This document shows positions 2,224 through 54,951 of a stretch of DNA of 64,000 bases, in pieces; positions within the stretch are counted from its first letter, which is position 1, and each line of letters opens with the position of its first letter. The stretch spans positions 64,001 to 128,000 of the forward strand of contig CBDCTA010000004.1 of the NCBI GenBank assembly GCA_965221955.1. The letters run 5' to 3'. A program made the translations under genes and the position numbers. The notes under the pieces are model-generated. The model saw nothing but the letters and a program-made list of their open reading frames with translations. It had not been told where the DNA came from and did no database searches. The stretch is from Gammaproteobacteria bacterium (GTDB lineage: Bacteria; Pseudomonadota; Gammaproteobacteria; UBA4575).

Positions 2224-2673
2224 ATGAAGATATCCAGAAGAAATTTTTTAGAAAAAAGCTTTTATGTGGGACTGCTACCGGTAATTGGCATCCCTTCTAT
2301 TCTTTCAGCCGAGTGGCCGGCTGCAGCCTTTGATGAGACCGAATATGAGCCTGCATTGAAAGGCTTAATTGGTGATGAAGCACTCAATGAAGGTGGTGTA
2401 AATATAGATGCCCCTGAAATTGCAGAAAATGGTGCAACGGTTCCTGTAAAAGTTTCTACTGATTTAGCTAACGTTGAATGGATTAGCATTTTAGGCGATA
2501 AAAATCCTCGTCCTTGGATTTCACGCTTTTATTTCCATGGAAAATCCAAACCATTTGTATCCACTCGCATTAAGTTACGTGAGTCTTCAAACGTGGTCGC
2601 TATTGTTAAGGCAGATGGAAAACTTCACATTGGCAAATCAGCGGTTAAAGTAACTGCTGGTGGTTGTGTATAA
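2224..2673 (+). CDS. soxY: Sulfur carrier protein SoxY (Tat exported)
   Basis: SRRNFL twin-arginine signal, APEIAENGATVPV, TRIKL, C-terminal VKVTAGGC. Confidence 0.93.
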   Translation: MKISRRNFLEKSFYVGLLPVIGIPSILSAEWPAAAFDETEYEPALKGLIGDEALNEGGVNIDAPEIAENGATVPVKVSTDLANVEWISILGDKNPRPWISRFYFHGKSKPFVSTRIKLRESSNVVAIVKADGKLHIGKSAVKVTAGGCV

Positions 2674-2691
2674 AGATAAAGGGAAAGAACT

Positions 2692-3009
2692 ATGGCTGAT
2701 AAAGAAATGAAAATTCGGGCGAAGCTAAAAGATGGCGTGACGACCGTTAAAGCGATTATGTACCATGAAATGGAGTCTGGTAGCCGAAAAGACAAAGAAA
2801 CAGGTGAATTGATTCCTGCACACTTTATTAAAGAAGTGAAAGCGGAGCTTAATGGTGAAGTGATTATTTCTGCTGAATGGGGTACGGGTGTTTCAAAGAA
2901 CCCTTATTGGTCTTTTGAGTTTGAAGGCGGTAACGCTGGAGACACCGTTAAGATTACTTGGGTGGATAATAAAGGTGAAACCGGTTCTGGAGAAGCAGTT
3001 ATTAAATAA
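2692..3009 (+). CDS. soxZ: SoxZ
   Basis: HEMESGSRKD...IPAHFI...VSKNPY...WVDNKG, directly after soxY. Confidence 0.95.
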   Translation: MADKEMKIRAKLKDGVTTVKAIMYHEMESGSRKDKETGELIPAHFIKEVKAELNGEVIISAEWGTGVSKNPYWSFEFEGGNAGDTVKITWVDNKGETGSGEAVIK

Positions 3010-3082: not shown

Positions 3083-3472
3083 TTACTGCTGAATAGAGTC
3101 AAGATAAAGAATAAGTTCTAAGATCCTCCCGCGCACTATTTGCTCATCCACCTGACTACAACCTTCCCAAATCGTATCGGATAAAAACAAATCACCCCAT
3201 GTAGGCATGGCACGTGTACCATGTTCTTGCAACACTTCTCTGCCATCAATAATTGCATAGACTCTTGAAACCGGGAATTGCCCGTTATTTCTTTCTGATA
3301 TTAAAGTTAAATCTGGGGCACTTTTCCCTTTTGCATCTTCACCATGGCAGGACGCACATTTAGCATTAAAGGTTTGTTTTCCAGTAACTACGGGGTCATC
3401 CTGATCTGCGAAGAGATTTGTTGAGAGGGTAATAAAAAAGAAAAATATCAGACTTCGAAGAATTGAGGTCAT
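3083..3472 (-). CDS. Monoheme cytochrome c
   Basis: Signal peptide, CASCH, HGTRAMPTWG distal Met motif. Confidence 0.85.
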   Translation of the reverse strand: MTSILRSLIFFFFITLSTNLFADQDDPVVTGKQTFNAKCASCHGEDAKGKSAPDLTLISERNNGQFPVSRVYAIIDGREVLQEHGTRAMPTWGDLFLSDTIWEGCSQVDEQIVRGRILELILYLDSIQQ

Positions 3473-3514: not shown

Positions 3515-4660
3515 TTAAGCTTCTTGTTTTTTCCAAGGTAGTAGCAATTCTGCTAGACCTGTACCTAACGCGCCAAAAAATCCTTTCTCATCTAACATGT
3601 GGTACTGTATTTTCATTGTTAGTGCGCTACCAAAAATGATCGAAACTAATGTCAGGATAGAGCCTATTGCTAACGTAGACATACCAGTTACACCTTGTCC
3701 TATTGTGCAACCAAATGAGAGCACACCACCAAAGCCCATCATTACCGCTCCGATTAAATGATTCACCATTTCTGACTTATTGCTAAAGGTTTCGATTCTG
3801 AAGTTTCCAGAAAAAATTGCGTATAAGAATGAACCGGTAATCATGCCGAAGACTATTGCAATGCCGAAGTTAATTTCAGCACCTGTAAACGTCATTAAAT
3901 AACTAATGCTATTACCTGTTGGCCCAATGAACGCCATGCCTTGCGGTGTGATGGGGTCAAAGTCATCTTGCCCTACAAAACCTGAAACATACCATGCGGC
4001 GACTACGCATAATCCGATGGCCACACCTGCCAAAACGTTATCAAAGCTTTTACGAAATTCTTCATGCTTAAATGCATAGGCAATAAAACCAAAAGCAACA
4101 ATAAAACCACCTACCTTATTAAGCCAACCGATATCTTCTAAATTTAATAATGAACCGATATAGCTGAATAGTCCTTGATCATTTAGACCCTGATTAGTGA
4201 GGTCTACATTTACTGCATAGATCCAATTCAATCGAAAGTTTGCGAAGATGCCTCGCATGGTCATGTAAGCCGTGATGCCTAAAACAAGCACGACGACAAG
4301 TGCTTTAAGATTGCCACCCCCTACTCTTACAAGATTTCTTTGTCCACAACCTGCTGCTAATGTCATGCCGACACCAAAAATTAGCCCGCCTAATATATAA
4401 CTGAGTACATATAGGTTTGGAGAGCGATATACAGACTCATCGATATCGACCATGCCTTGTATATATAAGAATTGAACACCTAAGATGGCTATACCTATAG
4501 CAAGAAACCACGCGCCGAGTCGTCCCTTGGCGCCCATATTCACGACATCACTTACCGCACCCATTGAACAAAAGTGTGTTTTGTTACCGACGAACCCAAA
4601 TACGATTGCAATTACAAAACCTAATAGGGCTACTAAGTGAAGGTTAGATAATTCTTCCAT
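3515..4660 (-). CDS. YeeE/YedE family sulfur-compound transporter
   Basis: Multi-TM protein with the three conserved Cys motifs HFCSMGA, LAAGCG and FGCTIGQG. Confidence 0.9.
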   Translation of the reverse strand: MEELSNLHLVALLGFVIAIVFGFVGNKTHFCSMGAVSDVVNMGAKGRLGAWFLAIGIAILGVQFLYIQGMVDIDESVYRSPNLYVLSYILGGLIFGVGMTLAAGCGQRNLVRVGGGNLKALVVVLVLGITAYMTMRGIFANFRLNWIYAVNVDLTNQGLNDQGLFSYIGSLLNLEDIGWLNKVGGFIVAFGFIAYAFKHEEFRKSFDNVLAGVAIGLCVVAAWYVSGFVGQDDFDPITPQGMAFIGPTGNSISYLMTFTGAEINFGIAIVFGMITGSFLYAIFSGNFRIETFSNKSEMVNHLIGAVMMGFGGVLSFGCTIGQGVTGMSTLAIGSILTLVSIIFGSALTMKIQYHMLDEKGFFGALGTGLAELLLPWKKQEA

Positions 4661-4778: not shown

Positions 4779-5276
4779 TTAGTTATTGGGCTTTTCTAGT
4801 TCTTGTTGTTGCTTGTACCATTCTTCATATTCATCGGGATGCATGGGTTGTTGTACTGGACGATGGAATTGATTAGGCGCCATCATATGGGGATTCATCC
4901 ATGCTGCTGGATTCATCATGTATGCAGGCATTGCCGCCATTTGCTGCATCATTTGTATCATCTGCATGTAGTTCGCCATATTCATCATCAATTGAAACCA
5001 AATAGCGGGGTTCATAGGGTTTTGCATTGCTGACGTTAGTGCAAATGGATCTTGGGCTGAAAAAGGCTCAATCATCGCAAATTGCTTTGATTCAACCACA
5101 TTTGGTGCATCAAAATCAGAATCAATCGAACGGTTGAATTGAGGGAATGTTGTGTGTGAAGCGGAGTTCAAAACTTCTGAAGTAGACGCTTTATTTTTAT
5201 GGTCAATAATTAAGGGAGCAACAATTAGCGCAATAATTGGGACGATAAAGAGTGCTTGTTGTACTACATTTTTCAT
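4779..5276 (-). CDS. Met-rich protein 5 (N-terminal membrane anchor)
   Basis: Hydrophobic N-terminus, MMNP repeats, degenerate C-terminal motif MHPDEYEEWYKQQ. Confidence 0.75.
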   Translation of the reverse strand: MKNVVQQALFIVPIIALIVAPLIIDHKNKASTSEVLNSASHTTFPQFNRSIDSDFDAPNVVESKQFAMIEPFSAQDPFALTSAMQNPMNPAIWFQLMMNMANYMQMIQMMQQMAAMPAYMMNPAAWMNPHMMAPNQFHRPVQQPMHPDEYEEWYKQQQELEKPNN

Positions 5277-5301
5277 TTAAATAAATTTTCTTAACTGAAT
5301 T

Positions 5302-5811
5302 TTATTTAGTAGAGGCTTGTCCTTGTTGCGTAAAATTTTGCATCATTTCAGTCCACTGGCTAAACCATTGTTCATATTGCTTTGGATCCATCATTTGTGC
5401 GCCAGGCATTTGATTCATAGGGTTTCCACCGTGTGAACCCATTCCAGGCATTCCCATACCCATGCCCATCATCGGATTCATCATTGGGCCCATCATGCCC
5501 ATCATGGGGTACATCATGTTCATACCCATCATAGGGTTCATCATGCCCATCATAGGACTCATCATCATGGTGGGGTTCATCATGCCCATCATGGGATTCA
5601 TCATCATGTTTGGATTCATCATGCCCGTCATTGGGGTCATCATGTGATTCATCATGTTCATATACATTGTTGGATTCATCATACCCATCATTGCATCCAT
5701 ATCTGGCATTGTAGATTGTTTTTTCTCTTCAGCATGCGTGAAAGAGACTCCTAGTACGAATAGGCAACTAGTAAATAAAACCAGTCGGAGTGATTTTTGT
5801 AGAGATTTCAT
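5302..5811 (-). CDS. Met-rich exported protein 4
   Basis: Sec signal ending THA, MMNPMMG repeats (about 53 Met in 169 aa by manual count), C-terminal MMDPKQYEQWFSQW. Confidence 0.8.
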   Translation of the reverse strand: MKSLQKSLRLVLFTSCLFVLGVSFTHAEEKKQSTMPDMDAMMGMMNPTMYMNMMNHMMTPMTGMMNPNMMMNPMMGMMNPTMMMSPMMGMMNPMMGMNMMYPMMGMMGPMMNPMMGMGMGMPGMGSHGGNPMNQMPGAQMMDPKQYEQWFSQWTEMMQNFTQQGQASTK

Positions 5812-5852
5812 GTTTTCAGCCTCTTTATAGAATTAATCAAAGGTAACGTTAT

Positions 5853-6326
5853 TTATTGGTTCACTTGAGGGGTCATGTTTTTCATCATTTCAGTCCATTG
5901 ACTAAACCATTGCTCATATTGCTTTGGATCCATCATTTGGTTCATTGGGTTATAACTGCCATAGCTACCCATTCCACCCATCATCCCCATCGGATTCATC
6001 ATTGGAGTCATCATGCCCATCATGGGTCCCATCATGCTCATGTAGGCCATTGGATTCATCATTTGCATATAGTTTCCTGGATTCATCCAAACACCTGGAT
6101 GCATTAAAGACATATAGTTTCCTGGGTTCATCCACGTCATTGGATTCATCCACATCGCTGGATTGAACATGGGGTGATAAGTCCCCATCCCAGGATAGGT
6201 AGTTTGTCCCCAATTAGGGAAAGCAAACTGATTGTTAGTATTATTCTGGGCTTGTGTGTTAGAGATTCCAATAAAGCACAGGCAGCTTGTAATCAATACT
6301 ATTCGAATTAAATTTCGAAAAAACAT
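5853..6326 (-). CDS. Met-rich exported protein 3 (start moved to ATG 6326)
   Basis: GAGG RBS before 6326, signal peptide ending TQA, WMNP/MMNP repeats, MMDPKQYEQWFSQW. Confidence 0.8.
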   Translation of the reverse strand: MFFRNLIRIVLITSCLCFIGISNTQAQNNTNNQFAFPNWGQTTYPGMGTYHPMFNPAMWMNPMTWMNPGNYMSLMHPGVWMNPGNYMQMMNPMAYMSMMGPMMGMMTPMMNPMGMMGGMGSYGSYNPMNQMMDPKQYEQWFSQWTEMMKNMTPQVNQ

Positions 6327-6363
6327 AGAGAGTTCCTCATAATTTTGGTCTGTAATTAAAAAT

Positions 6364-6963
6364 TTATTTTTTAGAATCCGTGTTACTCCACTGATTGAAC
6401 CATTGTTCATACTGTTTAGGATCCATCATTCCCATTGGGTTCATCATTGGAGCCATCATTGGGTTCATCATGCCCATCATAGGACTCATCATTGCACCGC
6501 TCATATCCATCATTGGGTTCACCATAGGGTTCATCATGCCCATTGCAGGTGCCATCATTGGGTTCATCATGCCCATCGTTGGGCCCATCATTCCCATCAT
6601 TGGATTCACCATGGGTGCCATCATTGGATACATCATGCCCATCATAGGATTCATCATACTCATCATTGGCTTCATAGCATCCATCATGGGACCGAAGTCT
6701 TTTTGATATCTCGCTACGTCTTCATCCGTATGGCATTCAGCGCATGATTCTATTGACATCAATTTATCGGGACTTGTCATCATCATATTCATCATGTTGT
6801 TCATAACCTTAGGGTCCATAGACTTTTGCATGGCTTGACTCATGTCACCCCAAGCAGGAGCTGCTTGCTTTGCTTCTTCTGCCTGTAGTGTTGCAGCGGT
6901 TGCTACAAACAAACAGATCGCTATGACAATTATTTGAGTAATTTTATTTTTCATTAACATCAC
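6364..6963 (-). CDS. Met-rich exported protein 2 with a heme-c motif
   Basis: Signal peptide ending LQA, CAECH, MMNPMM repeats, MMDPKQYEQWFNQW. Confidence 0.8.
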   Translation of the reverse strand: MMLMKNKITQIIVIAICLFVATAATLQAEEAKQAAPAWGDMSQAMQKSMDPKVMNNMMNMMMTSPDKLMSIESCAECHTDEDVARYQKDFGPMMDAMKPMMSMMNPMMGMMYPMMAPMVNPMMGMMGPTMGMMNPMMAPAMGMMNPMVNPMMDMSGAMMSPMMGMMNPMMAPMMNPMGMMDPKQYEQWFNQWSNTDSKK

Positions 6964-6999
6964 TTGTTTATCTCCACTATTACTATTTAAATTTCAAAA

Positions 7000-8361
7000 T
7001 TAAAAATCGCCTGTTGCAGCACCTTCCATGATGTATTGAATATTTTCCCTTATTACTTTTGCATGCTCGCGTATATCTTTTGATAAATGACTGTTAGGGT
7101 TTTGTGCATAATCCAACCAACTGACATCCCAATCTAACGTCATTACCCATAACTTGCCTTCAGCATCTTCCATTAATGCAATTTTACAAGGCAAGAAAAC
7201 AATGAACTCTGGAACTTCATCCAGAATTTTGCGTGCCATTCTTGCATCACAAAAACGAAACATCTCAACTTTTGCTGAAGGTTGTTCAGTTTCAGCTTCG
7301 ATTTGCTTCCATAATGGGCTTGAACCCACAAATTTAAAATTTACTTCATTAGCACGTAGTTTCATGGCTTCTACGGCATCATCCCAGGAAACGCCCTCTT
7401 CTACTGGAATCTTTTCTGCCATCATGCTCACCATATTGCGCATGGATAACGGACTCATCGCCATCGCTGTTTGAAATGCATGCTGTTTTGCTTCGCGTGA
7501 AACGCTTGGAGAGACGGTATTTTTAGGCCAGTTTTCGTAGGTTTGTGTTGGAAGACCTGGAATCGTGATGACGGGGAGTTGCTCGGGTGTTTCCCCATTT
7601 TTATATGCTTCACTAGGTTGCCCAAACATTCCGAACATCATTTCTGGATCCATTGATTTCATCATGGCATTCATGTTTTGCGTTTGTGTCATGATGTTGA
7701 CCGGATGATTCATCATGGTCATAGGATTCATATAGATGTTTGGGTTCATCATGGTTCCCATCATGCTCATCATCATGGGTGTCATCATCACCATTGGGTT
7801 CATATACATCCCAGGATTCATCATGTTTGGATTCATCATTGGAGTCCCCATATTAGGATGCATAGTTTGCATCCAATTGGTGGCTACAGTTGTAGAATTT
7901 GATGGTGTAGCTTCGCTTGAATTACTTGCTTGGGAATTGTTTGTTTGGGTGGCTACTTCAGCATTTGAATCGATTTTTGCAATTTCTATTTCTGTATCGT
8001 CAGCTTCTTCGTCTAAATCTGATTCAGATACGCCAGTTTCATCATTAATTTCTATTGTTTGATTTGTTGTTACTTCTAAAGCGATTTCTTCCCCATCAAG
8101 TTTTTCAGTGGATGCTTCTTCTATTGCCTCATCTGAAGGTTCTAGAGCACTCTTTTCTTGTGGCTCGATTACTGCCTTATTAGTATCTAATTCTGCAAGT
8201 TGTACATTGGTAGTGGGCTGCTTTGTATCTTCTATAAGTTCAATATCCTCAACCTCAGGATGAATAAAGCTTGTCATTTTTGAATACACAGTCTGGTAAT
8301 TAGTAGCTAACAACCATCCAAGTAGACCAAATACAAATATAAATACGGTTTTCATTTTCAT
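7000..8361 (-). CDS. Met-rich protein 1: anchor/signal + acidic linker + Met-rich repeats + DUF302 domain
   Basis: C-terminal SWDDAVEAMKLRAN...MFRFCDARMARKIL...VFLPCKIALMED...GKLWV resembles DUF302. Confidence 0.8.
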   Translation of the reverse strand: MKMKTVFIFVFGLLGWLLATNYQTVYSKMTSFIHPEVEDIELIEDTKQPTTNVQLAELDTNKAVIEPQEKSALEPSDEAIEEASTEKLDGEEIALEVTTNQTIEINDETGVSESDLDEEADDTEIEIAKIDSNAEVATQTNNSQASNSSEATPSNSTTVATNWMQTMHPNMGTPMMNPNMMNPGMYMNPMVMMTPMMMSMMGTMMNPNIYMNPMTMMNHPVNIMTQTQNMNAMMKSMDPEMMFGMFGQPSEAYKNGETPEQLPVITIPGLPTQTYENWPKNTVSPSVSREAKQHAFQTAMAMSPLSMRNMVSMMAEKIPVEEGVSWDDAVEAMKLRANEVNFKFVGSSPLWKQIEAETEQPSAKVEMFRFCDARMARKILDEVPEFIVFLPCKIALMEDAEGKLWVMTLDWDVSWLDYAQNPNSHLSKDIREHAKVIRENIQYIMEGAATGDF

Positions 8362-8744
8362 ATTAGTTAGTGAGTACTTCTGATATAAATTTTATGTTTT
8401 ATACAAGCGCAAGTTTAGCGCGTGACTTTATATTAATATATTAATATATTCTAATTTTTTTTATTTATATGTTTATGATTTTGTTAATATCTCTTTTTAT
8501 TCAATAAGTTATTTACTGTATTTTAAGTAAATTATAGTCAAATAATATTGATATTGTTTAAAAATCACACACATTAAGCTTAATTATTCTTATCGTGAAA
8601 CTATTTTATTTTATAAAAACTACCAAAACAGAGGCTTGGTATGAATATGTCTGAATGGCACAATGTATCCATAAAATATGAGTGATAGCCCTTTACCCCT
8701 ACTCATAAAAATAAGTGTCTTAAATTAATCACGGTTGATCTTTA

Positions 8745-9266
8745 ATGAAATTGATTTCTGTTCTTTTTTTGCTAGCAATTGGATTTGCCATAGCTTTTGC
8801 TTCTTCAAAAACGCTCGAGTCTACTAATCAAACTGAGTTTTGTACTTCATGTCACTCTATGCAGTGGGTCAAACAAGAATGGATGGAGAGTATTCACTAT
8901 TCAAATATTTCAGGGGTAAGAGCTAATTGTTCGGACTGTCATGTGCCACATGATACTGGACCTAAATTGGTTGCAAAGTTACGAGCAGCAAAGGACGTTT
9001 GGCATGAAATTCTTGGCACTATTGATACTGAAGAAAAATTTGAACACCATCGTTGGCAAATGGCTAACGCTGTATGGGATAGAATGAAGGCAACAGACTC
9101 CCGAGAATGCAAATCATGTCATACGGTTGCCGCGATGGATCTTAAAGAACAAGATCGTTCAGCGCGCAAAAAGCATAAAAAGATTGCTAAAGGAGATAGC
9201 GAGAAAACTTGTATCGATTGCCACAAAGGTGTTGCTCATGAAGCACCTAGTGAACCAGAGGAATAA
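8745..9266 (+). CDS. NapC/NirT family tetraheme cytochrome c
   Basis: N-terminal TM helix and four CXXCH motifs (CTSCH, CSDCH, CKSCH, CIDCH) with SGVRA and HKGVAH. Confidence 0.9.
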   Translation: MKLISVLFLLAIGFAIAFASSKTLESTNQTEFCTSCHSMQWVKQEWMESIHYSNISGVRANCSDCHVPHDTGPKLVAKLRAAKDVWHEILGTIDTEEKFEHHRWQMANAVWDRMKATDSRECKSCHTVAAMDLKEQDRSARKKHKKIAKGDSEKTCIDCHKGVAHEAPSEPEE

Positions 9267-9427
9267 GCAAAACCTGTAAATGATGATATAAATCAGCAAA
9301 TTTCTATATAAAAGCCCTAAATACTGGCAATTCAATGTGCTAAAGTTTCGAAAAGTTATGAACCTTTGTTTATGGCTTACTACTAATTAATAACAACCAT
9401 ATGGATCCAGGAATTAGGAGGAGTTCT

Positions 9428-10087
9428 ATGTTTAATCATCGCATCCTCGCGACTCTAATTACGCTTGTATTTGGAGTATGTTTTGTTTCACCCGCAGCAG
9501 CAGAAGGTGCCAGTGCTGAAATGCTGTCTAACACATGCCTTGGTTGCCATGGTCCTGGCGGAATTAGTAAAGGCCCAGCAACACCTACCATTTCAGGAAT
9601 GTCAGAGCTTTATATTATCGCTGCGATGTTAGCCTATAAATATGATAACGATGAAGACAAAATCGATGAGATTATTGAATCAGATCCTGATTTAGAGGAT
9701 GTTGAATATTTTGCAAGAACCTCAACCGTGATGAATCGTATCGCGAAAGGTTATTCCGAAGAAGAAATTAAAATTATTTCTAAACACTTTGCTGAGCTAC
9801 CTTTTGAGAGTGCTGCGCAAAGTGCAAATGCTGATCAAGCCAAGTCTGGTGCAAAGTTACACGAAGCACATTGTGAAAAATGTCATGAAGATGGAGGCAG
9901 TTCCGCAGAAGATGACGCGGGTGTGCTAGCTGGACAATGGGCTCCTTACCTTGAATACACCATGGCAGATTTTGCAAGTGGTGATCGGAAAATGCCTAAG
10001 AAAATGAAGAAACAGATGGAAGAAGCACATGCAGCAAATGAAGAAGCTATAAGAGATCTGATTCAGTTTTACATAAACCAAAAGTAA
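9428..10087 (+). CDS. fccA: Flavocytochrome c sulfide dehydrogenase, diheme cytochrome subunit
   Basis: AGGAGG RBS before ATG 9428; CLGCH and CEKCH; LAGQWAPYL; directly upstream of fccB. Confidence 0.88.
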   Translation: MFNHRILATLITLVFGVCFVSPAAAEGASAEMLSNTCLGCHGPGGISKGPATPTISGMSELYIIAAMLAYKYDNDEDKIDEIIESDPDLEDVEYFARTSTVMNRIAKGYSEEEIKIISKHFAELPFESAAQSANADQAKSGAKLHEAHCEKCHEDGGSSAEDDAGVLAGQWAPYLEYTMADFASGDRKMPKKMKKQMEEAHAANEEAIRDLIQFYINQK

Positions 10088-10114
10088 CTATTGATTAGCT
10101 TAGGAGTTTAAAAA

Positions 10115-11392
10115 ATGACAAATATAAATCGAAGAAGTTTTTTAAAAGCCACTGGCGGTGCATTAGCTACTGGTGGTTTAGGTGTTCCATTTCTAGCCCA
10201 TGCAGCAAAGAAACGTGTTGTCGTTGTAGGTGGTGGAGTTGGCGGTTTAATTGCTGCTAAATATATTGCAAAAGGTGACTCATCAATAGAAGTTACGATT
10301 GTTGAGCCTAAAGCACATCACCACACGTGTTTTATGAGTAATGAAGTTATTGGTGGAGATCGTGATATTTCTACCATTAAATTTGGCTATGACAATCTTG
10401 CGAATCACGGCATCAAGCTGGTTCAAGACAAAGTCACTATGGTTGATGCGGAAGCACATAAAGTGAAGACTGCAGGTGGTACAACTTTAGAGTATGACCG
10501 TTGCGTAGTTTCTCCAGGAATTGCACTAAAGTTTGGTGCAATTGAAGGATATAGCGAAGAAGCTGCAGAAATAATGCCGCACTCTTGGATTGCAGGACAG
10601 CAAACTGCCCTACTTCGTAGCCAGCTTGAATCAATGGAAGATGGTGGCCTAGTCGTTATCGCGCCTCCTCAAAACCCTTTCCGTTGCCCTCCTGGTCCAT
10701 ATGAGCGTGCGGCACAAATTGCACATCATCTAAAACACAACAAACCTAAATCTAAACTTTTAATTTTAGATGCTAAAGATAAGTTTTCTAAGCAAGGCTT
10801 GTTCATGCAAGGTTATAAAGATGTGTATGGTGAAATGATTGAATGGGTTGCAGGTGCTGATACGGGTGGTGGTGTTAAGTCAGTAGATACTAAAGCCATG
10901 ACCGTGAGTACAGACTTTGATGACCATAAAGTGGCAGTCGCTAATATCATACCTCCACAACAGGCAGCACAAGTCGCACATGATTCAGATTTAGTGGACG
11001 ATTCTGGTTGGTGCCCGGTTGATCTAGGCACATTTGAATCAAAGAAACATAAAGATGTACATGTAATTGGTGATGCAAGCATCGCGAAAGGTATGCCGAA
11101 GTCTGGCTATGCAGCGAGTACTCAAGCAAAAGTATGCGCAGCAGCGGTTGTTAGCATGTTGCAAGGTAAAGATGCACCGGTAACATCATACGCTAATGCA
11201 TGTTATAGCTTAATTGCACCGGATTATGGTATTTCAGTCGTAGCGGTTTATGCCCTTGCAGAAGATCGTTCTGAAATCAAAAAACTTGGTGGTGGTTTAA
11301 CTCCCATGGATGCAACTGCTGAAGCGCGCGCACGTGAAGTGGAATATGCATATAGTTGGTTTAATAATATGACAGCAGAAATGTTTGGCTAA
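10115..11392 (+). CDS. fccB: Flavocytochrome c sulfide dehydrogenase, flavoprotein subunit
   Basis: Tat signal [41 protein letters not shown]. Confidence 0.93.
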
Positions 11393-11465: not shown

Positions 11466-11726
11466 ATGAATAGAAACTTAACGGATCTAAAAAATATTGG
11501 CGAAAAACTCGCTAAACGTTTACATGAGGTTGGTATTCGATCTGAAGCAGACTTACGAAAGGCAGGCTCAGCAAAAGCACATAAAATGATTAAGGCAAAA
11601 TATCCTAATGAAACACTTGCTGTTTGCTACTACTTATATTCTTTCGAAGGCGCTCTCGCAAATAAGCATTGGGATAAATTAAGCAAAAAAAGGAAGCAAG
11701 AATTGCGTAACGAAATTGAAAACTAA
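11466..11726 (+). CDS. TfoX/Sxy C-terminal domain protein
   Basis: LTDLKNIGEKL...VGI...LYSFEGAL...HW pattern. Confidence 0.85.
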   Translation: MNRNLTDLKNIGEKLAKRLHEVGIRSEADLRKAGSAKAHKMIKAKYPNETLAVCYYLYSFEGALANKHWDKLSKKRKQELRNEIEN

Positions 11727-11732
11727 TACTCG

Positions 11733-12299
11733 TTAAAGATTTATCTTAACTGTAAATGCACCCCGTATATCACCTGCTTGAAACCCGGTTGCTTGGTCTT
11801 CAGGATAAAGGTCATTAATTTTTTCAGCAATGACAGGAGCTAACTTTTTTCCATGGCACAACAAACAAGGTTCTTGCATGGGTATCGCTTTCATATAGCG
11901 AAAGATTTTTTCCCCATCTTCCTTTACAACTTCACTTATTTCTAGAGTTTTAATATCTACATTTAAATTTTTCTGAGATTCAAACCAGTGTAACTGTTTT
12001 GTTTCCCATGCATCCGCTTGATTAGTAGGATTGCGAAGTTTTAAAGATGTGCGCCCTACTTTGAGATTATTTTTAACAGAGATTTTTTTGCTGATTTCTA
12101 CAGCTTCAAGATTACAAATTGTAATTGCTGCTTCAGGTCCCTCTGATTGTATTGTGCTGACGAGTTTGTTTTTTAACTGTTTGCCTAGTTGTTTACTCGC
12201 GCTTTGACTTAAAGCCAATTCTTGTTCGGTATTAGGAGTACACGCAATATTTGTTAACGCAAATAAAGCGGCTATTAAAATAAAAACGAACTTGTTCAA
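11733..12299 (-). CDS. DUF3365/Tll0287-like heme-c protein, probable lipoprotein
   Basis: RTSLKLRNP.N, FRYMKAI, CLLCH, YPEDQATGF..GDIRGAF. Confidence 0.85.
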   Translation of the reverse strand: MNKFVFILIAALFALTNIACTPNTEQELALSQSASKQLGKQLKNKLVSTIQSEGPEAAITICNLEAVEISKKISVKNNLKVGRTSLKLRNPTNQADAWETKQLHWFESQKNLNVDIKTLEISEVVKEDGEKIFRYMKAIPMQEPCLLCHGKKLAPVIAEKINDLYPEDQATGFQAGDIRGAFTVKINL

Positions 12300-12309
12300 A
12301 CTGAAGTGT

Positions 12310-12915
12310 TTAAATAAACAAGCAGATATCAGATTTTTGTGCAGCAGGTAAAAAGGATGCTGCCCCTACCCAATCACTCACATCATCAATAAATTGATCT
12401 TTCTCGTAACCAAATAAGTCTACTGTCATTTGGCATGCAACCAATTTCACTTCAGCTTCTACTGCAAGCTCACGTAGTTCTTCGACACTTGCTACACCTT
12501 TGTTTTTGAGTGTTTTAGACATCATAGTCGTTGCAAACTTTTCAAAACCAGGAATGTTACTGCTGAGTGCATTAGGAATATTCCATTCGATACTCTTAAA
12601 CCATTCTGGTCCAAATGGCATTTTCATAGGCATCGCGGGGTTACCTAAAGGTGAGATTTCTAAATCTAAATCTTTTTTTAATAAATTTAAGCCATAAAAT
12701 GTAAAGAAACAGGATACTTCCCAACCTAATGCTGCAGCGGTAGATGCAAGAATAAAAGGTGGATAAGCCATATCCATAGTGCCTTTCGTGGCAATTAAAG
12801 ATAGTTGAGGGATACGAGATTCTTCACGTTCTTGTAATTTTTGTTCTAGTCTTTCATCAAACCATTGATCTAACATTTCAGGAGTTAGATTTTGAGTATC
12901 AAGTGAATTCGCCAT
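12310..12915 (-). CDS. dsrE2: DsrE2-like sulfur-trafficking protein (DsrE/DsrF/DrsH family)
   Basis: KGTMDMAYPPFILASTAAALG...FFTFYGL...ACQMTVDLF. Confidence 0.85.
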   Translation of the reverse strand: MANSLDTQNLTPEMLDQWFDERLEQKLQEREESRIPQLSLIATKGTMDMAYPPFILASTAAALGWEVSCFFTFYGLNLLKKDLDLEISPLGNPAMPMKMPFGPEWFKSIEWNIPNALSSNIPGFEKFATTMMSKTLKNKGVASVEELRELAVEAEVKLVACQMTVDLFGYEKDQFIDDVSDWVGAASFLPAAQKSDICLFI

Positions 12916-13607: not shown

Positions 13608-14501
13608 ATGGATGCTGCAACACTGACAAATCTTTGGCCAAAGATTGAAATGAAGCTGCCTCGTTGGGTAAGCATTGCTTTGGTTGTATTGATTTTGATT
13701 ACTCTGGCTAAATTAGTTTGGGGATTTTTCGATAGTGGCTCTAATCAAGTGATTGCACCACCTGTTACTACACCTACAAATGTTAAACCGCAACCACGCG
13801 CTAACCATGATCGCAAGATTGCTCAATTGCACTTAATGGGTAAGCCAGCCCCTGTCGCTTCATCTTCGAAAAAAGTTGAAGATGCTCCCGATACAACATT
13901 GAACCTAAAGCTTTTAGGGGTGTTGGCGGGCGATAAAGATTACGGCTACGCCATTATTTCTAGTGGTGCGAATAAAATTAAGCACTATGGACTTGGGGAT
14001 GATATCCCTGGAGGTGCCGTATTACATGCGGTGTATTCGGATCGAGTTATCCTTGAACGTGATATCAGGATGGAAACGTTACGTTTACCTAGAGCCAATG
14101 CAAAAGGCTTCAATCAAAAGAAGTTCTCAAATACTAAGCCAAAAACTGCAACCCAATCGAAGGCTGCTGGAAATCTTAACAATTTTGAAACGCTTGGGCA
14201 GTTTCGCCAAGAAATTATGAAAAATCCTGTTCGTTTAACAGAGTTCATCAATGCGGCACCCGAAAACAACGAAGATGGGCAGTTTTTGGGTTATAAACTT
14301 ACGCCAAGCAAGAATACAGATATGTTCTATCAGCTCGGTTTACAACCTGGAGATGTTGTGACAAACATTAATGGAGTGACATTGGATGCGCCAAATAAAG
14401 GCCCTGAAGCCATGCAGTCTTTAGCCACGGCTTCTGAAGTCACCATGATTGTGATGCGCGAAGGTACTGAAATCACCTTATTTCAGGATTTGAGTCAATA
14501 A
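13608..14501 (+). CDS. gspC: T2SS protein C (with PDZ domain)
   Basis: TM helix, APDTTLNLKLLGVL, C-terminal GLQPGDVVTNING PDZ domain. Confidence 0.92.
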   Translation: MDAATLTNLWPKIEMKLPRWVSIALVVLILITLAKLVWGFFDSGSNQVIAPPVTTPTNVKPQPRANHDRKIAQLHLMGKPAPVASSSKKVEDAPDTTLNLKLLGVLAGDKDYGYAIISSGANKIKHYGLGDDIPGGAVLHAVYSDRVILERDIRMETLRLPRANAKGFNQKKFSNTKPKTATQSKAAGNLNNFETLGQFRQEIMKNPVRLTEFINAAPENNEDGQFLGYKLTPSKNTDMFYQLGLQPGDVVTNINGVTLDAPNKGPEAMQSLATASEVTMIVMREGTEITLFQDLSQ

Positions 14502-14692
14502 TTGCTTGTGAGGGAGCAGGAAGCAAGTGAAGAAGCTTATCCATTAGTCCAGGAATAGCTAACACAGGGATAAATTTGACCAAGTAAAAATAGGATTTAG
14601 TGTATAAAAGTCAGGCAACTTCTATTCGATGTAGAAATATCCTGATAAGCTGAATGAACATATAATTTTTATTGAAAAAACTACATAACTAA

Positions 14693-16828
14693 ATGAAATA
14701 TAAGTCTAACTTTAGCCGAATTTTTAAAGCGTTGGGTGTTTATGTGGTGTTTGTTGCATTCATATGTCAGCTCGCTCTAGCCGAAACAGGTGTAACACTT
14801 AATCTGAAGGATGCGGATATTCGTTCGTTCATTGAAACGGTAGCTGACGCCACTGGCCGAAATTTTGTAGTAGATCCCCGTGTAAAAGCAAAAGTAACCG
14901 TGGTGTCCGCACGGCCAATGAACCGTGAAGAAGTGTATCAAGTATTCCTCTCTGTATTACAGGTGCATGGTTATGCTGCAGTGCAAGTTGGAGAAATTAT
15001 TAAAATTCTCCCGGATGTAAATGCGAAACAAGGGCCTGTAGTTACTGGAAGCGGTAGCGCAGATGCAATCGGTGATGAGCTGGTAACGCGTGTGGTACCA
15101 ATTAAAAATGTTCCTGCGGCGCAAATGGTACCTATACTAAGACCTTTAGTACCGCAACAAGGTCATTTAGCTGCATATCCGAATAGCAATGTTTTAGTAG
15201 TTTCGGATCGTGCTGCAAACATTCAAAGATTAATTTCAATTATTAATCGTATTGACCGTCCAGATAGTCAAGAAATTGAAATTGTACCTCTTCAACATGC
15301 ATCTGCTGCAGAAGTCGTTCGGATTATTAACTCCATGAACCGTCAAGATGCTCAAGGTCAGGTCCCAGGTGGCACAACCCTCGCAGCGGATGAACGATCA
15401 AACAGTGTCTTACTTTCTGGTGATAATGCAGCACGTCTTAGAATCCGAGGCATCATTGCCCATCTCGACACGCCTTTACAAGGTGGTGGAAATTCGCAAG
15501 TTGTGTTTTTGAAATATGCTAAAGCTGCAGAGTTGGCCCCTATTCTACTTGGTGTTTCACAATTTGAAGCGCAGGAAGGTCAGCAAGGTGGAAATGCAGC
15601 CGCCGCTGTAAATGGCTCTAATGAAGTAGATATACAAGCAGATGAAACTAATAACGCATTAATTATCACGGCAGCTCCGGCTAAGTTTGATAGTTTAAGA
15701 AGAATTATTAGTCAACTTGATGTACGTCGTGCACAAGTGTTAGTAGAAGCAGTGATAGCAGAAGTTTCAACCAACCTTGCTAAAGATTTAGGTGTTGAAT
15801 TTGCTTATGTACCCACCGATCGATCCTCTGGTACAACGCCAGCTTTTGGAACTTTACTACCGAATAGCGGAATTGATTTAACAGGTGTTCTTGGTGGTGA
15901 TGCAGCTAATGCAATAACAGCGGTTACAAGTGGTGCATTTGTTGGTGCAGCTAAACTAAGTGGCAAAGATCGATTTGCTGCTTTAATACGTGCGCTTGAA
16001 GGAGATTCTGCTACAAATATTTTATCTACCCCTCAGTTAATGACGCTAGATAATGAAGAAGCAGAGATCGTTGTAGCGCAAAATGTTCCTTTCATTACAG
16101 GTCAGTTCACTAATACAGGTTCTGGAACCGATTCTGCAGTAAACCCATTTCAAACAATTGAACGTGAAGACGTAGGTATAACACTACGTATAACACCTCA
16201 AATCAATGAAGGTGATAGCGTTAAATTGGATATAGAAACAGAGTCATCTTCTATTTCAACTTCTGCAGTAGCCAGTGATCTCATCACAAATAAACGCTCA
16301 ATTAGCACTAGTGTTTTAGCTAAGGATCAGCAAACGATTGTACTAGGTGGTTTGATTGAAGATTCGTTTAGAGACAATGTGCAAAAAGTACCGTTATTGG
16401 GCGATATTCCTTTGTTAGGTCATTTGTTTAAAGCAACATCTACAACAAATGACAAACAAAACTTAATGGTATTTATACATCCGGTAATTGTTCGCGATGC
16501 TGCGACTGGTAGCTATGCTACAAACTCTAAGTATAGTTTCTTACGTGCTAAACAAATTGAATCTGAAATAAATGACCGTGGCCTAATTAAAAATGGCGCG
16601 AGTTTATTGCCTGACTTGGATGAATTGGTAACCCAAATTCCTGGTGGTGGAACAGCATCTTCTACATCAGCTGTTTCAATAGATCAATTACTACAACAAT
16701 CACCAGGTGTTGAAACTACTGCTGCTGAAGAATTATCCGATATAGCCGTAGAAGAAATTCAAGCTGAAGATTTGCCTGCTGAAAATATTTCTATTGAAAC
16801 GGATTCAGACGTAATTATTCTGGAATAA
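14693..16828 (+). CDS. gspD: T2SS secretin D
   Basis: LNLKDADIRSFIETV, QVLVEAVIAEV, KVPLLGDIPLLG; acidic C-terminal tail. Confidence 0.96.
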   Translation: MKYKSNFSRIFKALGVYVVFVAFICQLALAETGVTLNLKDADIRSFIETVADATGRNFVVDPRVKAKVTVVSARPMNREEVYQVFLSVLQVHGYAAVQVGEIIKILPDVNAKQGPVVTGSGSADAIGDELVTRVVPIKNVPAAQMVPILRPLVPQQGHLAAYPNSNVLVVSDRAANIQRLISIINRIDRPDSQEIEIVPLQHASAAEVVRIINSMNRQDAQGQVPGGTTLAADERSNSVLLSGDNAARLRIRGIIAHLDTPLQGGGNSQVVFLKYAKAAELAPILLGVSQFEAQEGQQGGNAAAAVNGSNEVDIQADETNNALIITAAPAKFDSLRRIISQLDVRRAQVLVEAVIAEVSTNLAKDLGVEFAYVPTDRSSGTTPAFGTLLPNSGIDLTGVLGGDAANAITAVTSGAFVGAAKLSGKDRFAALIRALEGDSATNILSTPQLMTLDNEEAEIVVAQNVPFITGQFTNTGSGTDSAVNPFQTIEREDVGITLRITPQINEGDSVKLDIETESSSISTSAVASDLITNKRSISTSVLAKDQQTIVLGGLIEDSFRDNVQKVPLLGDIPLLGHLFKATSTTNDKQNLMVFIHPVIVRDAATGSYATNSKYSFLRAKQIESEINDRGLIKNGASLLPDLDELVTQIPGGGTASSTSAVSIDQLLQQSPGVETTAAEELSDIAVEEIQAEDLPAENISIETDSDVIILE

Positions 16829-16834
16829 TTCCAA

Positions 16835-18361
16835 ATGGAAACTGAAAAGGCACAACCTTCATTAGCACCGCGAGAAATTCGTAGACCGCCGTTTAGCTTT
16901 GCTAAACGCCATGGCATTTTAATTGGTAATGAAATTAATGGCCGTGTGATGATTTTTCAACGCCCCGATGTAAAACCACCTTCGTTAGCTGAAGCGCGGC
17001 GCTTTGTTGGCAAACCGTTAAATATTCGTACCCTCTCGGATGATGAATTCGATGAGCTATTAACACAACTCTATGATGATAGTGCTACGGGTACATTGGC
17101 TTTGATGGAAGGTTTTGAAGATGATCTTGATTTAGCCAGTCTTGCAGAAGCCTTGCCTGAGCCACAAGATTTGATGGATGCAGATGATGATGCACCGATT
17201 ATTCGTTTAATAAATGCATTGCTTACTCAAGCGGTTAAAGAAGGTGCATCAGATATACATATTGAAACGTTTGAATCTAGATTATCCGTACGTATGCGCG
17301 TAGATGGTGTATTGCGTGAAGTGCTACAACCGCCCCGCAATTTAGGTGCGCTTGTTGTTTCACGTATTAAAGTGATGGCTGCGTTAGATATTGCAGAAAA
17401 ACGTTTACCGCAAGATGGACGTATATCTTTGCGAATAGCAGGCCGACCTGTAGATGTACGTGTTTCCACCCTTCCCTCTGGACATGGCGAACGTGTCGTA
17501 TTGCGTTTATTAGATAAGCAAGCGGGACGGCTAGATTTAGAACACTTAGGCTTGCACCCAGATCTTCATGATAAAATTAAACAAGCCATTGAAAAGCCTC
17601 ATGGCATTGTTTTAGTTACGGGTCCAACTGGTTCAGGTAAAACCACCACCTTATACGCTGCATTAAGCGAAATTAACGATAAGAAACGCAATATTCTTAC
17701 CGTTGAAGATCCAATTGAATATTTCATTGATGGCATTGGACAAACACAAGTCAATGGCAAAGTGGACATGACCTTTGCACGTGGTTTACGCGCCATTCTT
17801 CGTCAAGACCCTGATGTGGTGATGGTTGGTGAGATTCGTGACTTAGAAACTGCATCCATTGCAGTACAAGCTAGTTTGACAGGCCATATGGTGTTCTCTA
17901 CTTTGCATACCAACACTGCAGTAGGTGCTATTACACGTATGCGTGATATGGGTGTCGAACCTTTCTTGCTCGCATCTAGTTTGGTCGCAGTATTAGCACA
18001 ACGTTTAGTACGCGTTTTGTGCGAGGAATGCAAAGTTTCACATATCGCAAATGACGTTGAGCTAAAACAATTACGGTCGGATGGTAAAGATTTTAACCAG
18101 TCACCTAATATTTACTCACCTGGTTCTTGTAGCGCGTGTAACGGTACAGGTTATGCAGGTAGAACCGGTATTTACGAACTTGTCACGATTGATGAAAACA
18201 TGCGGCGCATGATTCATGATATTGGTGCTGAACAAGAACTAGAAAAATACGCACACCAACATACGGCGAGCATCCGTCAAGATGGAATTCGCTTAGTGCT
18301 TGAGGGAGTAACCACACTTGAAGAAGTCATGCGCGTGACTAAAGAAGATGTTGAATACTAA
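16835..18361 (+). CDS. gspE: T2SS ATPase E
   Basis: GPTGSGKTT, LRQDPDVVMVGEIRD, Cys4 motif. Confidence 0.96.
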   Translation: METEKAQPSLAPREIRRPPFSFAKRHGILIGNEINGRVMIFQRPDVKPPSLAEARRFVGKPLNIRTLSDDEFDELLTQLYDDSATGTLALMEGFEDDLDLASLAEALPEPQDLMDADDDAPIIRLINALLTQAVKEGASDIHIETFESRLSVRMRVDGVLREVLQPPRNLGALVVSRIKVMAALDIAEKRLPQDGRISLRIAGRPVDVRVSTLPSGHGERVVLRLLDKQAGRLDLEHLGLHPDLHDKIKQAIEKPHGIVLVTGPTGSGKTTTLYAALSEINDKKRNILTVEDPIEYFIDGIGQTQVNGKVDMTFARGLRAILRQDPDVVMVGEIRDLETASIAVQASLTGHMVFSTLHTNTAVGAITRMRDMGVEPFLLASSLVAVLAQRLVRVLCEECKVSHIANDVELKQLRSDGKDFNQSPNIYSPGSCSACNGTGYAGRTGIYELVTIDENMRRMIHDIGAEQELEKYAHQHTASIRQDGIRLVLEGVTTLEEVMRVTKEDVEY

Positions 18362-18375
18362 ACCTCGAGCAATTT

Positions 18376-19593
18376 ATGCCTGCATTTGAATATACAGCAT
18401 TAGATACAGCTGGTCGTGAAAAACGCGGGGTTATTGAAGGCGATAGTCCACGAGCGGCACGACAGCAGTTACGTTCAAAAGGATTTGATCCTCTCGCAAT
18501 CAATCAAGTTAAAGATCGTAAAGAGAAATCTGCAGTAAAGGGGTTATTTTCTCGCGGTTTTAGTTCTACAGATCTTGCTTTATTTACACGTCAGTTATCT
18601 ACACTTGTACGTTCAGGCACACCGCTAGAAGAATCTTTACGTACAGTAGGAAACCATACTGAAAAACCTCGAGTTAAACGCACTATTATGGGTGTGAGAT
18701 CGCGTGTAACAGAAGGTTATTCATTGGAAAAAGCCATGGGTGAATTTCCTTCCGCATTTCCTGAAATGTACCGAGCCACCATTGCCGCAGGTGAAAAGTC
18801 AGGACATTTGGATGCAGTGCTAGATCGACTTGCAGATTACACAGAAACGAAACAAGAAACTACACAAAGTGTTGTGGGAGCTTTGGTCTACCCTATCGCG
18901 TTATTATTTATCGCAATTAGTGTAGTCGTCCTATTAGTTGTTGTCGTAGTGCCCAAAGTGGTTGGAATTTTTGCAGATTTGGGACAAGAATTACCATTAC
19001 TTACTCGCATTTTAATATCTTTTAGTAATTTTCTTGCTGCGTATGGAATTTATATACTCATTGCCATTATTGTTGGCGCGATTGCCTTTAGCCGCGCAAT
19101 GCGTAGCGAAATGTTCAAACAAAAAATGCATAAAATCTTTCTTGGCTTACCTATAGTGGGCAAGCTTACAAGAGGTGTAAATACTGCACGCTTTTCACGA
19201 ACTTTGAGCATTATGACTGCATCAGGTGTGCCTGTCTTAGATTCATTACGAATTGCCGCTGAAGTCATTATGAACCGTCCTATGCGGCAAGCCGTACAAG
19301 AAGCTGCGGTAAGTATTAGCGAAGGCGCAACCATACATTCCTCACTAGAACGTTCAGGGCATTTTCCGCCAATGACCTTGCACTTAATTGCCAGTGGTGA
19401 ACAAAGTGGTAATTTAGAAGAAATGTTAGACCGAGCTGCATCTCAGCAAGAGCGTGAATTGAATACTGTAATTAATACGACATTAAAATTACTTGAGCCT
19501 TTAATTATTGTAGGTATGGGTATTTTGGTATTAGGGATCGTGATGGCGATCTTAATGCCTATCTTTAATCTCAACCAATTAGTGGGACAATAG
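18376..19593 (+). CDS. gspF: T2SS inner-membrane protein F
   Basis: FTRQLSTL, AGEKSGHLD, GEQSGNL, LLEP. Confidence 0.96.
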   Translation: MPAFEYTALDTAGREKRGVIEGDSPRAARQQLRSKGFDPLAINQVKDRKEKSAVKGLFSRGFSSTDLALFTRQLSTLVRSGTPLEESLRTVGNHTEKPRVKRTIMGVRSRVTEGYSLEKAMGEFPSAFPEMYRATIAAGEKSGHLDAVLDRLADYTETKQETTQSVVGALVYPIALLFIAISVVVLLVVVVVPKVVGIFADLGQELPLLTRILISFSNFLAAYGIYILIAIIVGAIAFSRAMRSEMFKQKMHKIFLGLPIVGKLTRGVNTARFSRTLSIMTASGVPVLDSLRIAAEVIMNRPMRQAVQEAAVSISEGATIHSSLERSGHFPPMTLHLIASGEQSGNLEEMLDRAASQQERELNTVINTTLKLLEPLIIVGMGILVLGIVMAILMPIFNLNQLVGQ

Positions 19594-19822
19594 TCGAGTG
19601 TTTTTAAAGCTAACTTACATTAAAAAATATTCTTAAGATCATGAAAAATATAAAACTATTAAATAATTTTCCTCATCGATCATGAGAACATCAGCACCGA
19701 TTATCTGTCTAAATTGACCGACAAAACTATCAATTCAATCTCGCTTACTACGGTTCTTGATACAATTTTATTATATTTACCCTTAATAATCAGCGAGTTA
19801 ATAAATGAGAGAGTGATTACAA

Positions 19823-20281
19823 ATGAAAAAACTCAAAAACTTTCAAAATAATAAAAGCCAGCGAGTGAAGGGCTTTACATTAATCGAGATCATCGTCGTG
19901 GTGGTCATTATTGGTTTATTAGCTGCAGTGATTGCCCCAAATATTTTTGGGCAAGTTGAAGAAGCACGTGTAAAGAAAGCATTAAGCGATATCCGTGCGA
20001 TTGAATCTGCTTTAAATCTTTATCGTTTAGATAATTTTAACTACCCCACAACAGAGCAAGGCATTCAAGCATTGGTCACTAAACCAAGCGGAGGTCCAGA
20101 AGCAAAGAATTGGCGTAAAGGTGGTTACTTACCTAGATTGCCTTTGGACCCTTGGGGTAGCGAATATCAGTATGCGAGCCCTGGCACCAGCGGTGAAATC
20201 GATTTATTTACTTTTGGTGCGGATGGCAAGCTAGGCGGCGAAGAAAACAATAAAGATTTATCTTTGGCAGATTTGAGATAA
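19823..20281 (+). CDS. gspG: T2SS major pseudopilin G
   Basis: GFTLIE prepilin site, YPTTEQG, DPWG, GADG. Confidence 0.96.
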   Translation: MKKLKNFQNNKSQRVKGFTLIEIIVVVVIIGLLAAVIAPNIFGQVEEARVKKALSDIRAIESALNLYRLDNFNYPTTEQGIQALVTKPSGGPEAKNWRKGGYLPRLPLDPWGSEYQYASPGTSGEIDLFTFGADGKLGGEENNKDLSLADLR

Positions 20282-20290
20282 AAATTCTAA

Positions 20291-20890: not shown

Positions 20891-20893
20891 GTA

Positions 20894-21274: not shown

Positions 21275-21278
21275 AGCT

Positions 21279-21899: not shown

Positions 21900-21907
21900 A
21901 GAACATC

Positions 21908-22864: not shown

Positions 22865-22890
22865 AGAGAGTCGAAAAAGAGAGAAGATAA

Positions 22891-24626: not shown

Positions 24627-24663
24627 ATTTGTCTGATTGAGTGCACTTATACAGTAATTTCAA

Positions 24664-54937: not shown

Positions 54938-54951
54938 AAGGAGAATCTCAA

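Follow-up and report, generated by a model that had tools for sequence, protein, structure and literature searches.

A run of five tandem genes on the minus strand, at positions 4779-8361 of a 64,000-nucleotide stretch of DNA from an uncultured gammaproteobacterium (contig CBDCTA010000004.1, positions 64,001 to 128,000, assembly GCA_965221955.1, lineage UBA4575; the whole stretch is hereafter called the window), encodes exported, methionine-rich repeat proteins in the middle of genes for sulfur oxidation, and raises the question of what such proteins do in this setting. Comparison across genomes showed that two of the five genes, g5 and g4, form a pair linked, in the genomes of several lineages, to yeeE, dsrE2 and soxYZ. 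From the genomic evidence, the module belongs between the oxidation or carriage of sulfur in the periplasm and its import by YeeE, a position with which several chemistries are compatible. The reading favoured here, tentatively and at slightly less than an even chance, is that the operon encodes a periplasmic module that would hold zero-valent or carrier-bound sulfur and pass it to YeeE.

The operon and its conserved gene pair

The five genes were numbered in order of position. The protein of g1 (4779-5276, 165 amino acids, 11.5% Met) is a divergent paralog that has a hydrophobic anchor at its N-terminus together with an EPF motif and a variant C-terminal motif. Those of g2 (5302-5811, 169 amino acids, 31.4% Met, with Met, Asn, Pro and Gly together at 58%) and g3 (5853-6326, 157 amino acids, 21.0% Met) are exported repeat proteins that end in the C-terminal motif, the repeats of g3 being composed of Met, Asn, Pro, Gly and Trp. 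The g4 protein (6364-6963, 199 amino acids, 27.6% Met) has a signal peptide, a helical CxxCH domain, a Met-rich core and the C-terminal motif, and the g5 protein (7000-8361, 453 amino acids, 10.2% Met) a membrane anchor and a DUF302 domain. The median Met content of the window's 46 open reading frames (ORFs) of more than 150 amino acids is 2.8%. Charged residues (Asp, Glu, Lys and Arg) make up 8.3% of g2, 4.5% of g3 and 14.1% of g4, and histidine accounts for 0.5-3% of the operon proteins.

A hydrophobic N-terminal segment was recognised by eye on every operon protein, resembling a cleavable signal in g2-g4 and an anchor in g1 and g5, in agreement with the preliminary description of the window; its estimate of about 30% Met for 5302-5811 was also confirmed by measurement. 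All five of the ORFs that it listed exist, although the start of g3 is most likely the ATG at 6326, and not 6410, to which the ORF extends, because this ATG is preceded by AGGA and agrees with the N-termini of homologs. With the corrected start, the intergenic gaps are 25, 41, 37 and 36 bp, inside the limit of about 45 bp first reported, and g1 is separated from yeeE by 118 bp.

The DNA of the Met-rich cores is made up of in-frame repeats that are degenerate (62-88% matches) and have periods of 12, 21, 33 and 39 bp. In comparisons with homologs, the proportion of synonymous differences (pS) was saturated at 0.68-0.85, and that of nonsynonymous differences (pN) was 0.12-0.24 for g2-g5 and 0.30-0.44 for g1; the values for fccB were 0.66 and 0.10, respectively. 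The minus-strand frames of g1-g5 are genuine genes under purifying selection. Contigs from a second study contained near-identical sequence across 29 of 30 bins, fragmented into short pieces at the repeats, with no significance attaching to gaps in this coverage, and one contig from another study omits 2+1 bases near 6448-6451. His-, Ile- and Gly-rich ORFs on the plus strand (4803-5033, 5462-5647, 5856-6107, 6395-6747 and 7678-8062) were considered as genes and rejected as the antisense mirror of the Met repeats; the His-rich ones are artefacts that arise because ATG read on the opposite strand is CAT, and they could mislead gene callers.

A pattern scan, with one genome taken per species, gave 38 related loci, all of them in metagenome-assembled genomes of uncultured Gammaproteobacteria, Thiotrichales or Pseudomonadota. 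In 37 of the 38, the g4 homolog has a g5 homolog immediately upstream of it. The neighbours within the fetched stretches were dsrE2 (34 loci), yeeE (30), soxYZ (30) and fccB (21), counts that are lower bounds, several stretches stopping at contig ends. Three gene orders occur across the related loci, one of which is dsrE2-g5-g4-yeeE on a single strand. Between 0 and 3 additional Met-rich ORFs follow g4, the window having the maximum (3); because this number varies while g5 and g4 persist, the conserved unit is the g5-g4 pair and not the five genes. The earlier suggestion of five variants dividing labour as one unit was therefore not supported.

Within the host's own order (56 species genomes, one family), g5 was detected in 37 genomes, dsrA in 54, fccB in 55 and soxY in 49. 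The g5 gene was recovered from 22 of the 24 assemblies of at most 10 contigs, compared with 15 of the 32 more fragmented ones, and fccB sits at a contig end in several g5-negative genomes, so that many of the g5 absences are probably assembly breaks at repeats, of the kind seen in the contigs of the second study.

When the class was sampled evenly (401 genomes), full-length g5 (E ≤ 1e-115) turned up in three genomes of the host's own family and in four genomes from three other families. Three loci from two of those other families each carried g5, a Met-rich ORF with CxxCH, and yeeE, together with dsrE2 in two and soxYZ in one; the third family (G206) contributed a full-length g5 hit, its locus lying outside the examined set. 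Further neighbours in the distant loci were TusA, SoxA, a SoxB-like Tat protein, thioredoxin-like proteins and a FadL/TodX-type outer-membrane protein. The proposed link to sulfur oxidation was thus upheld, with homologs adjoining soxYZ, yeeE, dsrE2, tusA, soxA, a SoxB-like gene or fccAB, and the homologs neither fell mostly in bacteria other than sulfur oxidisers nor adjoined cop or cus genes, nor did they match a characterised family. Across 41 loci (708 kb), no homologs of msrP, msrQ or cusCBA lay within about 10 kb, one weak RND piece excepted. As a separate observation, a channel of the FadL/TodX family, a family for hydrophobic substrates, stands in a yeeE-dsrE2-tusA-sox setting at L011:4252-5619 and L066:15269-16627, both of them distant loci with the Met-rich pair, and could be an outer-membrane route for hydrophobic sulfur.

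The host genome carries DsrAB and FccAB. Neither SoxB (TIGR04486, E ≤ 1e-20) nor Pfam SGP was found in the host assembly, which is 96.6% complete. A SoxC-type molybdoenzyme was likewise not found in it, because its sole Oxidored_molyb gene, on another contig (C2), is MsrP-like: a 317-amino-acid Tat protein is followed there by a 197-amino-acid membrane protein, and the two were read as an MsrPQ-like pair by size, Tat motif and membrane neighbour. SoxYZ may act as a stand-alone sulfur carrier, given that no SoxB or SoxC was found. The single Sulf_transp (YeeE-family) gene found in the host genome is the one adjoining the operon.

Architecture of the encoded proteins

A search with g4 among 5.8 billion cluster representatives returned 164 homologs at E ≤ 1e-3, few of which carry source names ('hypothetical protein', and one 'cytochrome c553'). 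In the alignment of g4 (22 homologs), the signal peptide is followed by a conserved domain some 70 residues long, then by a Met-rich core whose length varies, and finally by the C-terminal motif. C74, C77 and H78 of the CxxCH motif (CAECH here) are invariant in 22 of the 22 aligned sequences, and CxxCH is also kept in the distant g4-family representatives that were read. The protein is a probable monohaem c-type protein, haem attachment being deduced from the CxxCH motif by itself. The sole Pfam hit of g4 was DUF1924, below threshold (20.2 bits, cut-off 22.5); no match was found in the PDB by sequence, and no usable match in the ESM Atlas. Foldseek found nothing with the whole-protein model, and a VIA-wide fold search with the same model gave single-helix matches only (Z ≤ 4.6), over the signal peptide region. 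The AlphaFold model of g4 has a helical domain at a pLDDT of about 80, a Met core below 50, and then a terminal helix; the Met cores, which differ in length through in-frame repeats, are predicted to be disordered.

When the haem-motif domain of g4 was searched alone, 43 representatives were obtained among 1.84 billion proteins. The g4 family includes minimal forms of 135-144 amino acids, in which the Met linker is very short and the C-terminal motif is retained, and other forms fused to a g1-type N-terminal part with the EPF motif (minimal and EPF-bearing forms: P0184, P0186, P0193, P0194, P0198, P0199 and P0202). Because both kinds of form were found, the family is modular, consisting of a signal or anchor, an optional EPF motif, an optional haem domain, a Met-rich spacer and the C-terminal motif. 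These modules have been shuffled among the paralogs, with the Met spacer as the expandable element. The C-terminus of g4 in the window (6364-6400) is about 8-10 residues shorter than in its homologs and diverges after QW, so that the conserved terminal helix is cut into; this could reflect either a small indel or a genuine variant.

Searches of Pfam and NCBIfam gave no family match for g1-g3 and none above threshold for g4, and the SGP profile (PF17228) did not match g1-g4 in Pfam. The 149 homologs of g2 are all unnamed. The C-terminal motif MxP[KE]xYxxW[FY] is common to the Met-rich proteins; in the alignment of g1-, g2- and g3-type sequences the invariant positions are M141, P143 and Y146 of this motif and two Met residues. 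None of g1-g3 has a haem motif. A complex prediction for the DUF302 domain of g5 with the shared C-terminal 45 residues scored 0.00, a value that has no bearing on binding either way. A full-text literature search found no description of a Met-rich/DUF302/CxxCH family, and Met contents of up to 31% are without a described counterpart in sulfur metabolism. The preliminary description had known of no matching family, and Pfam, NCBIfam, the PDB, the ESM Atlas and the literature search bore this out.

The g5 protein consists of a membrane anchor (residues 1-27), an acidic linker (28-160, 26% Asp and Glu), a Met-rich segment (161-245, 36% Met), a conserved region, and a DUF302 domain (about 317-453; PF03625, 37.9 bits against a Pfam cut-off of 23). 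The last 237 residues are 57-84% identical across 21 sequences, with two invariant cysteines at 371 and 392. In Foldseek the g5 model, with a pLDDT of 60-88 across the DUF302 domain, matched the DUF302 structures 1q9u (E 1.2e-5, TMt 0.70) and 1j3m (E 1.1e-4); by sequence, the only PDB match was TT1751 (E 0.34). The C-terminal domain of g5 thus shares its profile and fold with DUF302/TT1751-like proteins (PF03625; PDB 1q9u, 1j3m). In contrast to them, g5 carries, before this domain, the anchor, the acidic linker, the Met-rich segment and about 100 conserved residues, and it forms a clade apart from the short DUF302 proteins.

A further 57 genomes of the class sample contain short DUF302 relatives (about 160-230 amino acids), whose matches to the g5 domain have E values of 1e-26 to 1e-42. 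All 68 of the relative loci were fetched, 12 of which adjoin an fccA-like cytochrome or fccB, and trees were built with IQ-TREE (24 rows) and FastTree (73 rows). The trees showed three groups. One group of 32 rows has cleavable-looking signals, 8 rows being beside an fccA-like cytochrome or fccB and 1 beside SGP genes. The larger clade of a second, transmembrane (TM)-anchored group contains 25 rows, with an adjoining ParA-like ATPase in 17, an SGP-like ORF within about 4 kb in 7, and an SGP-positive genome in 21. The g5 clade (support 100) and one other sequence attach between the signal-bearing and the TM-anchored groups. Among dsrA-positive genomes, SGP accompanied the short DUF302 relatives in 33 of 50, compared with 12 of 65, counts uncorrected for kinship. 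By gene neighbourhood, DUF302 proteins of this sort are repeatedly wired to sulfide oxidation and globule proteins. The SGP-adjacent DUF302 genes were considered as direct support for g5, and this support was weakened by their belonging to a different, TM-anchored clade that goes with a ParA-like ATPase and a TPR protein. A DUF302 gene has also been reported inside sox clusters without soxCD in Acidithiobacillia (PMC5037610).

SGP-positive Gammaproteobacteria contain, beside the SGP genes, a conserved cluster of a ParA/MinD-like ATPase, a TPR membrane protein, a TM-anchored DUF302 protein and a small membrane protein (L073:4822-7948; L074:2690-6169 and 16536-16886; L072:4557-8849; also L068, L086, L091 and L104). 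The gene order by Pfam is SGP, CbiA/ParA, TPR, DUF302 in L073, and DUF302, TPR, ParA in L074, where SGP lies about 13 kb off. The cluster is a candidate module organising sulfur globules; we know of no description of it, the literature not having been searched for it.

Proposed sulfur hand-over and the alternatives

For the hand-over of sulfur to YeeE, the module would sit between periplasmic FccAB and SoxYZ on one side and, on the other, the YeeE-family importer, which would feed DsrE2/TusA and the cytoplasmic reverse Dsr pathway. The disordered Met/Asn/Pro/Gly segments would provide a surface, flexible and rich in thioethers, on which hydrophobic zero-valent sulfur or polysulfide is held, and the DUF302 domain, tethered to the inner membrane and bearing two invariant cysteines, would present sulfur to YeeE. 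The haem domain of g4 may supply or remove electrons for sulfur mobilisation, and the extra paralogs g1-g3 would add capacity.

The route by which sulfane sulfur of the periplasm gets to the YeeE-like SoxT importers is stated as a gap in PMC11582611, where the proposed presenters are periplasmic thiol-disulfide oxidoreductases whose genes adjoin soxT. The SoxT1A and SoxT1B modules of Hyphomicrobium denitrificans resemble the present arrangement in having a YeeE-family channel between periplasmic proteins and a cytoplasmic sulfur carrier, which here would be DsrE2 in the window and TusA in L011, with soxYZ adjacent and a truncated Sox background. The presenters proposed there for the SoxT modules are thioredoxins of the DsbA or SoxS type, whereas the loci described here encode DUF302, CxxCH and Met-rich repeat proteins. 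The module supplies concrete candidate proteins for the step from periplasm to cytoplasm toward Dsr or sHdr enzymes, since its genes adjoin the sole YeeE-family gene of a Dsr-type oxidiser, and it bears on how stored sulfur is organised in lineages that lack SGP-family proteins. Its parts are small and soluble, so that haem content and the binding of S8, polysulfide and Cu(I) are accessible in vitro without culture of the host. Even if the function were metal or oxidant buffering, this would be an unusual protein family closely tied to sulfur-oxidation loci.

Several points weigh against a role in sulfur hand-over. The synteny counts were drawn from related, non-independent genomes, and every carrier of the module is uncultured. 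No g5 was found at E ≤ 1e-20 in 19 of the 56 genomes of the order, including near-complete assemblies of 3 and 8 contigs, so the module is not essential for Dsr-type oxidation. The yeeE gene is set off by the 118-bp gap and has a promoter-like site of its own, so that its co-transcription with the operon is at most putative, and no cytochrome family or fold matched g4 in Pfam, in PDB sequence searches or in fold searches with the whole-protein model. To our knowledge, thioethers are not known as ligands of S8 or polysulfide, and for this reason the sulfur-binding chemistry is conjecture.

A bolder extension of the hand-over reading is conceivable but doubtful: the Met-rich proteins would be a new class of sulfur-binding disordered proteins that form a periplasmic phase or coat dissolving S8 or polysulfide, coupled to YeeE through the DUF302 and haem proteins. 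The dissolved sulfur would come from FccAB and SoxYZ, in lineages without Sgp proteins. If true, such a class would close the gap between the storage of sulfur in the periplasm and its oxidation by Dsr in the cytoplasm.

The alternative that survives best, although unlikely, is that the Met-rich paralogs are the matrix or coat of periplasmic sulfur globules, replacing Sgp, with g5 as the membrane anchor. It overlaps with sulfur hand-over and puts the weight on storage instead. Like SGP-family proteins, g1-g4 are small and of low complexity, carry an N-terminal signal or anchor, and can occur as several paralogs per genome, and one DUF302 clade adjoins SGP genes; that clade, however, differs from the g5 clade, and the many loci without an extra paralog fit a structural coat poorly. 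Similarly, SgpA-D of Allochromatium vinosum and other Gammaproteobacteria are small, repetitive, exported, multi-paralog proteins of Dsr-type oxidisers without SoxCD. They differ in that SGP-family ORFs are rich in Gly, Asn and Trp instead of Met, Asn, Pro and Gly, with no sequence match between the two, and that Sgp proteins have no haem motif, conserved C-terminal motif or obligatory DUF302 partner.

The distribution of the two systems bears on the same alternative. Pfam SGP was positive in 52 of the 401 genomes of the class sample, in 45 of the 122 dsrA-positive genomes, in none of the 7 that carry the full Met-rich system and in none of the 56 belonging to the host's own order. This exclusivity is only suggestive (Fisher p 0.046, uncorrected for kinship). 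The predicted co-occurrence with sgp absence holds in the last two counts but is weak, as 70 of the 122 dsrA-positive genomes have neither SGP nor the Met-rich system; complementarity with SGP was accordingly rejected as proof of a globule role. Four putative sgp genes are reported for the SUP05 bacterium Ca. Thioglobus autotrophicus in PMC6509183. No named Thioglobus record was present among the homologs of g4 and g2 or the 38 pattern-scan loci. The novelty of the Met-rich family would weaken if those putative sgp genes were Met-rich members of it.

Segments rich in Met are known to bind Cu(I), metals are often abundant in sulfidic habitats, and besides CusF, SilE, PcoE and CopM are further Met/His-rich periplasmic metal binders. 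The operon proteins resemble this group as Met-rich periplasmic proteins, and could on that ground be a periplasmic buffer of Cu(I), Ag(I) or thiophilic metals protecting or supplying the sulfur-oxidising enzymes. The literature found treats Met-rich periplasmic proteins as copper proteins; of the papers that also mention sulfur oxidisers, most concern, judged by title and the start of the abstract, copper or metal resistance, (per)chlorate or iodate, and none describes the present family. Such a buffer is nevertheless improbable: the operon proteins have no match to a Pfam copper family, NCBIfam being likewise blank, and little His; they have no cop, cus or sil neighbours, the 41 loci are free of cus homologs save the RND piece mentioned above, the window's own CusCBA with a CusF domain is 44 kb away, and the conserved partners are all sulfur genes.

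A third alternative takes g4 as a monohaem electron carrier from FccAB/Sox to a NapC/NirT-type quinone reductase, with the Met-rich tails as tethers. The invariant CxxCH of g4 is consistent with this, as are the divergent arrangement of g5-g4 and napC-fccAB in the window and the adjacency of fccB in 21 of the 38 loci. Yet the other 17 loci and the two further families keep yeeE/dsrE2 with no napC or fccAB nearby, g1-g3 lack the haem motif, and 30% Met is left unexplained; a dedicated electron carrier is thus a faint prospect.

The last alternative, a sacrificial Met sink for periplasmic oxidants recycled by MsrPQ, is modelled on MrpX of Azospira suillum, described in PMC4436054 as a periplasmic peptide of 20% Met and 44% charged residues, encoded in the yedYZ operon, which is oxidised by hypochlorite and re-reduced by YedY. 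MrpX is likewise exported, very Met-rich and probably disordered, but it differs in composition, regulation and operon partners (yedYZ) and shows no homology to the operon proteins. Although the host genome does have an MsrP/MsrQ-like pair, a sink is hardly probable, given that these genes lie on another contig and in 0 of the 41 related loci, that g2-g4 have 4.5-14% charged residues compared with 44% in MrpX, and that a haem motif and a DUF302 partner would be superfluous. Neither copper buffering nor an oxidant sink has genomic support.

Neighbouring genes in the window

The neighbours first named for the operon (soxYZ, a cytochrome c, YeeE, NapC, fccAB and a DsrE2-like gene) were all recovered in the ORF list and by Pfam/NCBIfam. 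The soxY and soxZ genes are at 2224-3009 on the plus strand. A c-type cytochrome of 129 amino acids, present in 4 of the 38 related loci, lies downstream of yeeE at 3083-3472 (minus strand). The YeeE/Sulf_transp transporter gene (3515-4660, minus strand, downstream of g1; PF04143, 222.9 bits) scored far below the cut-offs of the NCBIfam TsuA models (114.6 against 400, and 70.2 against 645), and by its profile match the transporter is a member of the YeeE family. Promoter-like sites lie on the minus strand for yeeE (4731-4704) and upstream of g5 (8531-8560), the latter a consensus match only, and terminator and promoter scans found no excess of sites over shuffles. Genes for a NapC/NirT tetrahaem cytochrome, an fccA-like cytochrome and fccB (8745-11392, plus strand) are divergent from g5. 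A Tll0287-like protein and the DsrE2 sulfur carrier (NF047629, 218.4 bits, cut-off 210) are encoded at 11733-12915 on the minus strand, and a small protein with a TfoX_C domain (11466-11726) between fccB and this pair.

The copper genes of the window, at 52146-58101 and 44 kb from the operon, encode a CusC-like outer-membrane protein (OEP), a CusB-like fusion with HMBD and CusF domains, and a CusA-like RND pump; upstream of them, at 51625-52050, is the gene of an exported protein of 141 amino acids that belongs to no family. The host genome thus has a separate copper/silver efflux system, unlinked to the Met-rich operon. A GGDEF-EAL protein is encoded at 45858-47870, and a run of genes on the plus strand (13608-25404) that, by eye, resembles a type II secretion cluster comprises a large secretin-like protein and several short proteins with pseudopilin-like N-termini.

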